DNA of 64,000 bases from a candidate division TM6 bacterium GW2011_GWE2_36_25 (GCA_000991575.1 LBRU01000001.1:84722-148721); one strand, 5' to 3'. Counted from the first letter of the stretch, positions 9,420 through 11,216 are shown. The notes: generated by a model from the sequence alone, not told the origin. Translations and numbers: made by a program.

Positions 9420-9815
9420 TCAATCGTATTTGCACTCTTCTAACCGCTTTAATCTCATACAACAAAACCAGTTTTGGACTTTTCTTAGTGCATCAATTGC
9501 TAATGAACTTCGTGATCCATTTATTCCAGATGTTGCTAATGCGCTCCCAGGCACCGTACAAAATATCTGAAGCGGACCATCTAATTTAAGTGCAACTAAA
9601 TTAAGCGCCAATCCAGATAAACATAAAATTTCACGATCACAACGTGTCCATGAAGATCGATGTTGCTCTTCCATTATTTTTTCATTCCCATCAATAATGT
9701 CTCTATAAAACATCATATCCGACCAATCTTTCGCATCTTCCATGGCACATAAATTAAAAAAAGCTAAAAAAATTATAAGCCTTATTGCATTTTTATAGAT
9801 ATTAAAAAAACTCAC
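9420..9815 (-). CDS. small secreted/membrane Cys-rich protein (A-M-E signal-peptide family)
   Basis: Start moved to GTG 9815, 7 nt after AGGAGGAGGG. Signal-like LIIFLAFFNLCA|MED, two Gly/Ala-rich hydrophobic stretches, C-terminal CC motif. Confidence 0.6.
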   Translation of the reverse strand: MSFFNIYKNAIRLIIFLAFFNLCAMEDAKDWSDMMFYRDIIDGNEKIMEEQHRSSWTRCDREILCLSGLALNLVALKLDGPLQIFCTVPGSALATSGINGSRSSLAIDALRKVQNWFCCMRLKRLEECKYD

Positions 9816-9877
9816 TTTAACACCCTCCTCCTGTGATAATACCAATTAAATAACGAGGAAAAAAGAAAAAATTAAAA

Positions 9878-10237
9878 TTAATTCTCTTTTTCTTTAGGTG
9901 GTTCAGTAATATTGAGATAACTATTTACCAAACAAGATCTAACTCTTTGGTCTTCATCTTTGGTCTCTTCAGCCCAACAAGCTGTACCAATCAGACAACT
10001 TATCCATAATGGCATACCTACGGGCGCAGGAATTAATGAAATAAACTGACTCAATGTAAATACTCTACAAACAAGGTCTTCCCCACTGCCACAATAACGG
10101 GAATCATGCGACTCTTTTTTCTGTGAATGCAATGACGGCCTAGTTTTTTGTTCCATGGCAAACAATGGAATAAAAACAAAAAAAAGATAGATCATTAAAA
10201 AATACATCACATCTTTCAACAAAAAAGGGGTCGACAA
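9878..10237 (-). CDS. small secreted/membrane Cys-rich protein (A-M-E family)
   Basis: Hydrophobic leader ending PLFA|MEQ; hydrophobic hairpin LIPAPVGMPLWISCLIGTACW. The start codon (TTG 10237 or ATG 10207) is uncertain. Confidence 0.5.
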   Translation of the reverse strand: MSTPFLLKDVMYFLMIYLFFVFIPLFAMEQKTRPSLHSQKKESHDSRYCGSGEDLVCRVFTLSQFISLIPAPVGMPLWISCLIGTACWAEETKDEDQRVRSCLVNSYLNITEPPKEKEN

Positions 10238-10332
10238 TTCAACCCTTTAACAGACTAGAAAACAAATTAAATTTTTGCAAAACTATGTTCGATTATGGAG
10301 GCAATTTACCAACGTTATGCGATCTTTTTTCC

Positions 10333-10364
10333 CACAAAAAAGAGGGGATTTTTAAGTCCCCTCT
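10333..10364 (-). terminator. rho-independent terminator of the 38-codon peptide gene
   Basis: Minus strand reads AGAGGGGA-cttaaaaa-TCCCCTCT followed by TTTTTT, 9 nt after the stop at 10373. Confidence 0.75.
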
Positions 10365-10372
10365 AGATGTTC

Positions 10373-10489
10373 TTAGCGAACGCGGCAAATGCCACCACGG
10401 CAACGACCACGTTGGCAATTTCTGCAACCAGCTGCTTCAACAATAACAGGCAAAAGCGCCAATGTAATTAAAAGTATTTTCTTAAACAT
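10373..10489 (-). CDS. 38-aa precursor: signal-like leader plus 17-aa Cys4/Arg6 cationic peptide
   Basis: ATG 10489 is preceded by GGAGGA plus 6 nt. Product MFKKILLITLALLPVIVEAAG-CRNCQRGRCRGGICRVR. Has its own promoter-like element and terminator. Confidence 0.6.
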   Translation of the reverse strand: MFKKILLITLALLPVIVEAAGCRNCQRGRCRGGICRVR

Positions 10490-10536
10490 AAAAAATCCTC
10501 CATTAAAAGGAAATGAATAAATACCACTACATAAGT

Positions 10537-10564
10537 AGTATAACAAATTCCAAACTTTTTTCAA
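10537..10564 (-). promoter_or_regulatory. sigma70-like promoter for the peptide gene
   Basis: Minus strand TTGAAA-N16-TATACT, with TG one nt upstream of the -10 (extended -10), about 45 nt upstream of ATG 10489. Confidence 0.5.
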
Positions 10565-10613
10565 TTTCTATCGTCATCAAAAAATTCAAATAGAACTTAA
10601 CAATAGATGTTTA

Positions 10614-11216
10614 CTAATCCATCTTTTTTCGTTCGGGTGCTTTAGCTCTCTCTTTAAAACTTTTCCACTTTTTTTCGCATTCATTTAAGATACAAGAATG
10701 ATTGCCCCAAAGCTCCGGACATTGCTCGCATGGTGGAATTGTGGCAAACAGTACTTTATGGCCAGCTGCAACACACATCGCCATTAATGGACATAAAAAA
10801 TCTAAGCTTGCTGAAAACTCATCCGCCTTCGATCTTTCCGCAAAACTTCTCTCCTGGGTTAAACAATCATGTACAGACCAACCCAAAGTTCCTAATATTA
10901 AAGCGCAAGTACAACAACATTGTTCATAGCTATTATGATATTCACATGGCTTAGGATACACTAACCTAAGTTGTCCCTTATAAGATATAGCCGTCGGAAC
11001 AGTAACGTCTGGACTTGTTGAGACTTCCTGGCTAATTGACATTTGCCCTGTATTAGGTAAATCGATCTCAGTATAACCATCTCGATCCAGGCGTATACTA
11101 ATCTCTTCCTTTTCTCCTGAGCTCTCTTGCACCGTCAAACGCTTCTCTTCCATTGCATTTAATAAACCTGAACTTAATAATAAAAGCAAAAAGCTAAACT
11201 TGTAAGAATAATTCAT
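10614..11216 (-). CDS. secreted Cys-rich protein (A-M-E family, larger member)
   Basis: Signal FSFLLLLLSSGLLNA|MEE; CCCTC and CEQC motifs flanking two hydrophobic stretches; Lys-rich tail; SD AAAGGA 5 nt before the ATG. Confidence 0.65.
   Translation of the reverse strand: MNYSYKFSFLLLLLSSGLLNAMEEKRLTVQESSGEKEEISIRLDRDGYTEIDLPNTGQMSISQEVSTSPDVTVPTAISYKGQLRLVYPKPCEYHNSYEQCCCTCALILGTLGWSVHDCLTQERSFAERSKADEFSASLDFLCPLMAMCVAAGHKVLFATIPPCEQCPELWGNHSCILNECEKKWKSFKERAKAPERKKMD

Follow-up and report, generated by a model that had tools for sequence, protein, structure and literature searches.

A methionine retained behind the Sec-type leaders of small cysteine-rich proteins in two gene islets of a candidate division TM6 bacterium

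The effectors of phytoplasmas that carry the SVM signal (SAP11/SAP54-type; PF12113) share a conserved leader of about 30 residues, with mature parts that are unrelated or hypervariable, and are encoded in variable genomic islands. Among the obligately intracellular chlamydiae, OmcA and OmcB are leader-bearing, Cys-rich envelope proteins that are thought to be cross-linked by disulfides outside the cytoplasm. Dependentiae-like bacteria are widespread intracellular parasites of protists whose host-interaction proteins are hardly known, beyond the fact that about half of the proteome carries signal peptides. Here, we analyse a stretch of 64,000 nucleotides (nt) from the candidate division TM6 bacterium GW2011_GWE2_36_25 (GCA_000991575.1, LBRU01000001.1:84722-148721; hereafter the window), in which two small gene islets encode short Cys-rich proteins whose hydrophobic leaders end just ahead of a Met. 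Leader-like N-termini occur on about half of the coding sequences of the window, and signal peptides on 44% of those of the Dependentiae isolate Chromulinavorax (PMC6561590). From these two frequencies we infer, by analogy, that the organism is probably a Dependentiae-like, host-dependent diderm.

Islet 1 is bounded by clpB (6640-9201) and a photolyase gene (11355-12728) and holds the minus-strand genes A, B, C and D; islet 2 is bounded by a LigT gene (13495-14262) and rtcB (15965-17419) and holds genes E, F and G (Table 1). Plain capital letters denote the islet genes, or the islet peptide, of the window, and X, G', F', C', i1a and i1c denote islet genes of relatives. The original prediction, made from the window itself, had counted four minus-strand genes between clpB and the photolyase gene, and four there are, the fourth encoding the 38-residue peptide C. 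It had also described five minus-strand open reading frames (ORFs), here A, B, D, E and F, with a hydrophobic leader ending in Ala-Met-Glu (AME), and all five were recovered with the junctions it had quoted. Six-frame ORFs of at least 50 codons contain seven AME tripeptides in the whole 64 kb, and five of the seven are these leader junctions. We estimate that chance would give about 0.04 such junctions (some 25 leader-bearing ORFs times a Met-Glu frequency of about 0.0015), so that the sharing of the junction by the five proteins is not random. We lean, with moderate confidence, towards seeing in the two islets a set of lineage-restricted, fast-evolving, Sec-exported small Cys-rich proteins, encoded at two turnover-prone places and cut ahead of an initiator-type Met that selection has retained. 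The evidence given below firmly indicates that A, B, D, E, F and G are real genes with translated leaders and terminal signatures.

Several observations place the leaders within the translated proteins. Shine-Dalgarno (SD)-like motifs stand 9-13 nt 5' of the leader start in six of the seven islet genes of the window, and at -16 to -7 of it in 10 of 16 orthologues; a properly spaced motif precedes the internal Met in none of 22 cases (window genes and orthologues together). A motif of AAGG/GGAG type is found about 10 nt before the start of 21 of the 29 confident window genes. Gene A has one of AGGAGG type 9-17 nt 5' of its GTG and none ahead of the internal ATG, gene D has AAAGGA 10 nt 5' of its ATG, and peptide C has GGAG 12 nt 5' of its ATG. 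Because these motifs precede the leader starts and never, at the right spacing, the internal Met, the leaders are evidently translated, as far as sequence can tell. The approach is able to discriminate, because a GalE-like epimerase used as a control (43889-44950) has 18 hydrophobic codons upstream (MMKIYCFLLFIFCMQKVY↓MKESILITGGAGYIG; the arrow marks the predicted cleavage site or its equivalent throughout) and an AAAGG of its own at the internal Met; its long form is probably a mis-extended start. At 35% GC, about 7% of random codons should be stops (our estimate), and every member and every orthologue keeps 16-27 open leader codons, so that leaders open by chance are very unlikely. Although the leader sequences have diverged, each orthologue keeps its leader in frame, begins it with a basic n-region ahead of a hydrophobic core, and has a small residue at -1. 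Over the 23 islet proteins of window and relatives, in which Sec-type features were judged by inspection and the cut was placed by the -3/-1 rule, position -1 is Ala in 12, Ser in eight, Gly in two and Pro in one, position -3 is Ser in eight, Leu in seven, Ile in five and otherwise Ala, Val or Gly, and most have Lys or Arg near the N-terminus. The predicted mature proteins would begin, for example, with MEDAKDWSDMMFYR (A), MEEKR (D) and MEWNTR (F).

Gene callers in several assemblies nevertheless began A, B and two F orthologues (P0003 and P0005) at the junction Met. One may thus ask if the Met is the true start and the leader no more than untranslated, T-rich DNA that stays open and reads as hydrophobic; T-rich DNA does encode Phe, Leu and Ile, and the epimerase is a real case of this kind. 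Such an annotation artefact seems very improbable to us, given that it is the leader starts, not the Met, that have SD-like motifs ahead of them, that the leader codons are open everywhere, and that the n-region and the -1 and -3 residues are kept at a synonymous divergence (dS) of 1 or more. The start of gene B may have to be moved for another reason, to a GTG or ATG near 10207, because a terminator-like hairpin (10228-10245, GGGTTGAATTGTCGACCC followed by a T-run) overlaps its putative TTG start. Begun near 10207, gene B would have a leader that lacks a basic n-region.

The orthologues and the islet proteins of a relative reveal which part of the junction is constant. Met stands at +1 in all 23 islet proteins, from at least five lineages, whereas +2 is Glu in 15, Gln in three, Asn in three and Ala and Arg in one each, and +3 is free. 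Outside the window the junctions take the forms S↓ME, G↓ME, P↓ME, S↓MQ, G↓MQ, A↓MN, S↓MN, A↓MA and A↓MR. Hence, AME does not hold up as a conserved unit, the residues at -1 and +2 being variable and Met(+1) alone constant. A neutral ATG would not survive everywhere at a dS of about 1 or more, which suggests that the junction Met is under purifying selection. A Kozak-like reading of the string GCC-ATG-G was dropped, this string being the trivial outcome of the Ala-Met-Glu codons and a pattern that the members with Ser at -1 break.

A Met right after the leader is not restricted to islet proteins. By a hand count it follows the predicted cut in about 10 of some 27 proteins that have a leader and are encoded inside the window or just outside it, where about 2% would be expected. 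Elsewhere among the exported proteins of the window the junctions are ordinary (for example A↓DD, A↓EE, A↓ES, A↓DI or A↓VV). The original prediction had named an equal frequency of AME after the leaders of unrelated secreted proteins as an observation that would speak against it, and this was in part what we found, with CHA↓MEK in a HIT-like protein, S↓MS in an M16 peptidase, A↓MR in a protein with leucine-rich repeats (LRR) and DnaJ-like features, and S↓MD in the ORF at 62934. Its proposal of a shared processing or sorting signal therefore survives in so far as the junction is non-random and under selection, but not as something proper to these proteins, since the leader-Met construction recurs in unrelated exported ones. 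The junction of the M16 peptidase is itself kept in three lineages (GLS↓MSENRIFKK in the window, GTT↓MSENRIFKK and GMA↓MSENRIFKK in the relatives' loci L091 and L098). The M16 catalytic domain begins right after this Met, like the N-terminus of a cytoplasmic homologue, so that a start codon already in place seems to have received the leader by grafting.

Relatives of the islet genes had to be sought with sensitive methods. Word-index homology searches started from D and F recovered nothing but the two queries. When 1.84 billion representative proteins were searched exhaustively with a profile of D and F, two foreign matches emerged, P0003 (E 2.5e-9) and P0004 (E 1e-6). A follow-up search added P0005-P0007. 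All five (P0003-P0007) are orthologues of F, 37-64% identical, and all keep the Met-Glu junction. A scan of metagenomes with a five-sequence alignment (A5) brought in no more than three further loci, all of them short and from the L091/L093 clade. The positions of F that are invariant in A5 are R22, C23, S26, E28-L29, C31-L34, H93-S94-C95 and K122-K123. P0003 is encoded on L091, a 65.7-kb contig syntenic with the window, where the order is M16; X, G', F'; LigT, HhH-GPD, photolyase, TspO; C' with four small leader-bearing ORFs; clpB, uvrC. The genes X, G and F occur in the same order on short contigs of at least three further lineages (L093/L098, L095, L096, L097), and the G orthologues of L091, L093, L095 and L097 have S↓ME or S↓MQ at the junction.

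The contrast between islets and flanks is large. Between the window and L091 the identity is 88% for ClpB and 73% for the M16 protein, and 72-76% for housekeeping DNA, yet F is only 40% identical in these same genomes. Both islets are kept in L091, with only peptide C and its upstream region conserved in islet 1: L091 lacks counterparts of A, B and D, and its own four small islet-1 proteins have neither a counterpart nor a remnant in the window (tblastn). The sole trace of these genes is a resemblance of the leader of B to that of L091 14962-15435 (i1c; FVFFIFTPLFG↓MQ), whose mature part does not align with that of B. No homologue of A was found in the loci retrieved and no relative of E was detected; in the syntenic L091 there is no E, and the F orthologue lies directly beside LigT. 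Gene X is present in all relatives and missing from the window, and E belongs to the window lineage only. Genes rtcB and archease (15965-17872) separate islet 2 from the M16 gene in the window; rtcB adjoins X in L095, and in L091 both are absent from this place. The ratio of nonsynonymous to synonymous rates (dN/dS) is 0.21-0.25 for F, G and X at a dS of about 1 or more (0.25 for F against its L095 orthologue, at a dS of 0.96, and 0.21 for G), against 0.03-0.10 for RtcB, M16 and ClpB. These values indicate that F, G and X are under purifying but relaxed selection. Rapid evolution and turnover of islet content are apparent from these comparisons of genes and gene order. A repeat search revealed no mobile-element signature around either islet.

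Does this set form one family? The original prediction favoured a common ancestry of A, B, D, E and F, which could not be demonstrated. Only D and F are linked, and weakly so (mature parts: BLASTP E 3e-4, 27 of 87 positions identical; shuffle-controlled Smith-Waterman z 7.8). When hidden Markov models (HMMs) are built with one member left out, the omitted member falls among six-frame decoys, and subfamily HMMs run against window decoys give no robust link besides D-F. A profile made from the F orthologues alone misses D (E 1.9), and the all-against-all HMM-HMM comparison that the prediction had called for (hhalign between subfamilies) gives at best an E of 0.003 and a probability of 11%, for F against X. 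Two other candidates were discarded: a link between A and G (z 4.5-5.4), for which composition-adjusted BLASTP finds nothing, and a 'GSCE' resemblance of E and X that was noticed by eye and is not significant. Pfam, searched up to an E of 1, has no family match for A, B, D, E, F or peptide C, and none to SVM_signal (PF12113); gene G has sub-threshold Pfam matches only, A is without a match in NCBIfam too, and the NCBIfam and PDB sequence searches were uninformative for the islet proteins. Architecture and composition are really shared among the five. Their common ancestry is unproven, and their rapid evolution is compatible with it.

A single divergent family in which AME serves as a dedicated, family-specific processing or sorting signal would account for a junction common to five window members and kept as A↓ME by F orthologues in four lineages. 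The D-F similarity spans both islets, a C-terminal HSC[LI]xGN-like motif recurs in D, F and X, and evolution at the pace seen for F would erase older paralogy. Yet, profile tests link A, B and E to nothing, orthologues vary at -1 and +2, and the junction recurs in the unrelated HIT-like, M16 and LRR proteins. We consider such a family unlikely, if worth keeping in mind.

The Cys richness that the original prediction had described is beyond doubt. Cys makes up 5.4-10.7% of the mature parts, against 1.13% of 42 other proteins (maximum 3.4%), and Cys clusters flank Gly/Ala-rich hydrophobic stretches. The number of mature Cys is even in 15 of the first 21 proteins, which agrees mildly with disulfides being formed outside the cytoplasm. 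The paired hydrophobic stretches, the other half of the proposed architecture, hold only qualitatively. In a 19-mer scan on the Wimley-White octanol scale, the F subfamily has no favourable 19-mer in its two stretches, and the G subfamily has one clear transmembrane (TM) segment flanked by CC motifs (in gene G itself, CC-x2-C and CC on either side). B has one 19-mer at -10.2 kcal/mol across a Pro-rich kink, D has two weak segments (-1.2 and -3.3 kcal/mol), as do X and L091-i1a, and the segments of A and E are marginal to weak. An AlphaFold2 model of F from a seven-sequence alignment is all-helical and unreliable (mean predicted local distance difference test 46, predicted TM-score 0.30).

These segments bear on a likeness to the bilobed hydrophobic hairpin of chlamydial inclusion-membrane (Inc) proteins, which the original prediction had put forward. 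Two adjacent, moderately hydrophobic segments are indeed present in B, D and the relatives' X and i1a, and the lifestyle is probably intracellular. But most members do not show the hairpin (F has no segment and G a single one), and the leaders are of Sec type where Inc proteins have the leaderless N-termini of type III secretion. The window has genes for a type II secretion system (T2SS) and for type IV pili, whereas it has no type III secretion gene, and the proteins are similar to no Pfam family. An Inc-like nature, already disfavoured, is in our eyes scarcely credible.

At the other end of the proteins we found a second signature. Lys occupies the third position from the C-terminus (-3) in 19 of the 23 islet proteins, among them all six of the window (A, B, D, E, F and G), often within [DE]KKxx. 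The last residues conform to KKxx in D, E, F and every F orthologue, and to KxKxx in B; if a dilysine is defined as Lys at -3 plus -4 or -5, then B, D, E, F and five F orthologues have one, and A and the X and G subfamilies have Lys(-3) only. Among 67 other genes of the lineage, Lys(-3) occurs in five and KKxx or KxKxx in one (Fisher tests of the six window proteins against the 67: p 2.7e-6 and 6.7e-5). The islet-1 proteins of L091 lack Lys at -3.

The two signatures could be read together, as the marks of host-directed effectors that reach host membranes or cytosol after export by Sec and T2SS. A two-ended terminal code would then label these exported proteins: a Sec cut before Met-(Glu/Gln/Asn/Asp) at one end, giving a stabilising Met that would escape the eukaryotic N-degron pathway or be of NatB type, and Lys(-3) or [DE]KKxx at the other, mimicking the dilysine signal for retrieval to the endoplasmic reticulum (ER) by coat protein complex I (COPI) and engaging that machinery. 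New effectors would arise when leaders are grafted onto start codons of proteins from the cytoplasm, and through rapid turnover within islets whose chromosomal place is fixed. The frequencies of the lysine motifs fit this proposal, and so does the observation that housekeeping exported proteins start with Asp, Glu, Val or Ala after the predicted cut where the effector-like LRR/DnaJ and HIT proteins start with Met. There are precedents for both ends: the dilysine motif (KNKYAP) of Legionella AnkB-Paris anchors this protein to the ER-derived vacuole (PMC5506055), and the potency of anthrax edema factor (EF) depends on its N-terminal residue via the N-end rule (PMC3755998). Yet, the F subfamily has the canonical KKxx but lacks a TM-grade segment in its two stretches, and the G subfamily, the only clearly type-I-like one, has HKSS or LKNN and no dilysine. 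This is the reverse of what COPI retrieval needs, and the fit to dilysine retrieval is therefore poor. Besides, the L091 islet-1 proteins do without the Lys, and the same Met occurs in the M16 peptidase, which can hardly be an effector. We judge that the proteins are host-directed effectors of this kind with little conviction, and give the terminal code in full form an equally slim chance.

Peptide C stands apart from its neighbours. Its mature part has 17 residues, is Arg-rich with four Cys, and resembles in sequence the beta-hairpin cationic antimicrobial peptides. It is the sole islet-1 gene kept in L091 (C', 14081-14269), where the unit C(Q/K)NGRCGIRR is duplicated. The conserved DNA (window 10401-10565 against L091 14002-14166) covers 76 nt upstream of C and is 79.8% identical, above clpB (76%). 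Islet 1 might on these grounds be of bacteriocin type, with C a secreted cationic antimicrobial peptide and its neighbours acting in immunity or accessory roles and turning over together with C. A peptide that looks like a two-disulfide beta-hairpin, has a strong promoter-like site and a terminator of its own and is the best-conserved element of the islet would suit this role, and the small membrane proteins beside it do change between lineages. But islet 2 has the same class of proteins and no C-like peptide, no transporter, modification enzyme or C39 peptidase is encoded nearby, and immunity proteins do not normally have a cleavable leader and 5-11% Cys. A bacteriocin islet is, we think, distinctly improbable.

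We thus return to exported proteins cut before a retained Met. Beyond the genes themselves, we infer their export, the position of the cut, the disulfides, a role at the envelope or the host interface and the reason for the Met. The islets would encode a class of small proteins, with mature parts of about 55-180 residues, at two conserved chromosomal sites (clpB-photolyase and LigT-rtcB/M16). The bacteria in question would be a small uncultured clade of low GC content, with a very large predicted secretome and with type II secretion genes. Translation would begin at the upstream codon preceded by the SD-like motif, a Sec-type leader (basic n-region, hydrophobic core, Ser, Leu or Ile at -3 and Ala, Ser or Gly at -1) would drive export, and signal peptidase I would cut exactly ahead of the invariant Met. 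The Cys-rich mature parts would then fold, probably disulfide-bonded, outside the cytoplasm. Some would stay anchored in the membrane, G by one TM segment and B, perhaps also D, by a hairpin, and others, such as F, would be soluble in the periplasm or secreted. The junction Met is most simply viewed as being of initiator type, with a leader grafted in front of it, a construction that the M16, HIT and LRR proteins would share. It might have been kept because translation can also start there, in the same frame, and yield a proteoform without the leader, in the manner of Salmonella PagC and OmpX, whose long and short N-terminal proteoforms differ by the Sec leader (PMC11005335). Alternatively, it might have been kept because the mature N-terminus must be Met-Glu, Met-Gln or Met-Asn; what becomes of exported toxins in host cytosol does depend on the identity of their N-terminal residue (PMC3755998).

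Some points weigh against this account. One relative has SSFP↓ME, with a Pro at -1 that signal peptidase I should refuse, and the predicted cleavage site was placed by the -3/-1 rule alone. The lack of an SD-like motif before the internal Met argues against efficient internal initiation, and we know of no reason why signal peptidase should need Met at +1. The AlphaFold model of F is too poor to suggest a fold or a disulfide pattern. Finally, export and cleavage give no account of Lys(-3), which we record as an unexplained signature.

Table 1. Islet genes, associated sites and other features of the window (coordinates from its first letter; ↓, predicted cleavage site)
Feature	Position	Strand	Description
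Gene A	9420-9815	-	131 aa from GTG 9815; ORF open up to TTG 9845; 24-aa leader; NLCA↓MED (Ala-Met-Glu codons 9746-9738); 6 Cys in mature part; C-terminus ...ECKYD
Gene B	9878-10237	-	119 aa from TTG 10237; alternative GTG/ATG starts near 10207; PLFA↓MEQ (codons 10159-10151); one strongly hydrophobic Pro/Gly-kinked segment FISLIPAPVGMPLWISCLI; C-terminus KEKEN (KxKxx)
Terminator-like hairpin (intrinsic type)	10341-10364	-	directly 3' of peptide C; AGAGGGGAC...CCCCTCT then TTTTTTG
Peptide C	10373-10489	-	38 aa, MFKKILLITLALLPVIVEAAG↓CRNCQRGRCRGGICRVR; leader, no Met junction
Promoter-like site of peptide C	10537-10564	-	TTGAAA, 16-nt spacer, TG-TATACT; 10/12 matches; within DNA stretch kept in L091
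Gene D	10614-11216	-	200 aa; LLNA↓MEE (codons 11156-11148); polar linker of about 65 aa, then 12-Cys domain with two weakly hydrophobic segments; C-terminus RKKMD (KKxx)
Gene E	14228-14617	-	129 aa; FACA↓MEN (codons 14566-14558); 7 Cys; C-terminus EKKNQ (KKxx)
Gene F	14720-15097	-	125 aa; SLKA↓MEW (codons 15052-15044); 6 Cys; C-terminus EKKLS (KKxx)
Gene G	15697-15915	-	72 aa; TIFS↓MQH (codons 15870-15862); C-terminus EHKSS, Lys at -3
M16 peptidase	17935-20631	-	non-member; ...FLLFGIGLS↓MSENRIFKKQLKNGL
Type II secretion-like cluster	32864-41012	-	GspC-like 39864-41012; GspD 37528-39867; PilM/GspL-like 35903-37531; second secretin 32864-35311
LRR/DnaJ-like protein	55705-56871	+	non-member; FGQLHA↓MRF; SD-like AAAGGGA before leader start
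ORF 62934	62934-63884	+	316 aa, family not assigned; SFSIKS↓MDL; AAAGGA about 10 nt before leader start
Tandem HIT-like protein	L087 15724-16869		just beyond window; NCHA↓MEK

The window is part of a 227-kb contig (LBRK01000001.1 / DOIM01000009.1) from Rifle-type groundwater metagenomes and has a GC content of about 35%. Its other genes include a ComEC fragment, C11, M16 and M23 peptidases and many leader-bearing ORFans; Rfam and tRNA scans of the window gave no matches. Three secretin genes lie within 40 kb, one PilQ-like beside small ORFs resembling pilus-assembly genes (1355-3977) and two in the GspC/GspD/PilM-GspL-like cluster of Table 1. This type II secretion-like cluster is a possible outer-membrane route for the leader-bearing proteins. 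Gene E and LigT look like one operon, because the stop of E is 2 nt ahead of the LigT start.

Some further features were noticed along the way. The gap between F and G is occupied by an imperfect nested palindrome of about 520 bp (15172-15691; arms 15172-15210/15653-15691, 15276-15295/15599-15618 and 15315-15335/15563-15583), inside which assemblies differ in the copy number of a 73-bp stretch (15373-15445). In the relatives, X-G-F are closely packed and lack it. The palindrome may be an insertion resembling a miniature inverted-repeat transposable element. LigT contains two tandem 42-bp copies (13910-13993, encoding ...KGCAHSDASTALST / KGCAHPDASSTLST...) and has 243-255 residues, against 181 in L091. 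As the window protein is longer, the repeat looks like a lineage-specific insertion in a gene of the 2'-5' RNA ligase family. Among species-representative genomes, the best matches of the photolyase are archaeal (Methanosarcinales, Halobacteriota) and from Bacteroidota, at no more than 55% identity, and the gene is also kept in the relatives L091 and L092; it was probably acquired horizontally long ago. The GC skew changes sign at about 24 kb (23900-24500), at the minimum of the cumulative skew and in a 600-bp gap between nusA and a gene for uracil-DNA glycosylase. This switch may mark a replication origin or terminus.

A Met that follows the leader and is invariant at a dS of about 1 or more, a frequent Lys(-3) and islets of high turnover make up a rule that can be checked, and with which secretomes can be mined for a candidate class of effector or envelope proteins. 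The same observations raise the questions of whether leaders are grafted onto existing start codons and whether the retained Met is a second start or a signal of N-terminal identity. If the Met is merely a vestige, then the islets hold an ordinary ORFan family of an uncultured organism.

How do these proteins compare with described systems? Like the Inc proteins of chlamydiae, they are small, lineage-specific and fast-evolving, have hydrophobic segments and come from a presumably intracellular bacterium. Yet, Incs have a bilobed TM domain of 40-60 residues and an uncleaved type III secretion N-terminus, whereas the islet proteins have Sec-type leaders and segments that are absent (F), single (G) or weak (A, D, E). 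With OmcA and OmcB they share a leader and Cys richness, and with OmcA also the small size, but there is no sequence similarity, and OmcA is a lipoprotein where the islet proteins have no lipobox. To our knowledge, a cross-linked envelope has not been described in the lineage of the window organism. The KKxx and KxKxx ends of B, D, E, F and all F orthologues recall those of dilysine-bearing pathogen proteins, such as Legionella AnkB-Paris (KNKYAP, PMC5506055) and Toxoplasma GRA3 (PMC6451337); here, however, the canonical motif lies on members without a TM segment, with Lys(-3) only in A, G and X. As in PagC and OmpX (PMC11005335), an in-frame Met stands near the signal-peptide boundary and a leaderless form would nearly equal the processed one in length, but the second start was mapped there by ribosome profiling and is suggested here by Met conservation, with no SD-like motif ahead of it. 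In the predicted secretome of Chromulinavorax destructans, signal peptides are found on nearly half of the coding sequences, with enrichment in ORFans and in proteases of C11, M23 and M16 type (PMC6561590), and the window resembles it in gene content and in how often leaders occur; that report describes neither a Met(+1) bias nor Cys-rich islets, and the window organism is itself only a probable member of Dependentiae. No known family matches the islet proteins, and the phytoplasma SVM-signal effectors differ from them in that the islet leaders diverge, with only Met (usually Met-Glu) constant, no Pfam match and no mobile units around the islets. Nevertheless, both are clustered sets of small secreted proteins of host-dependent bacteria that are alike only at the signal peptide, and by this analogy the SVM-signal effectors would be the closest counterpart in kind.

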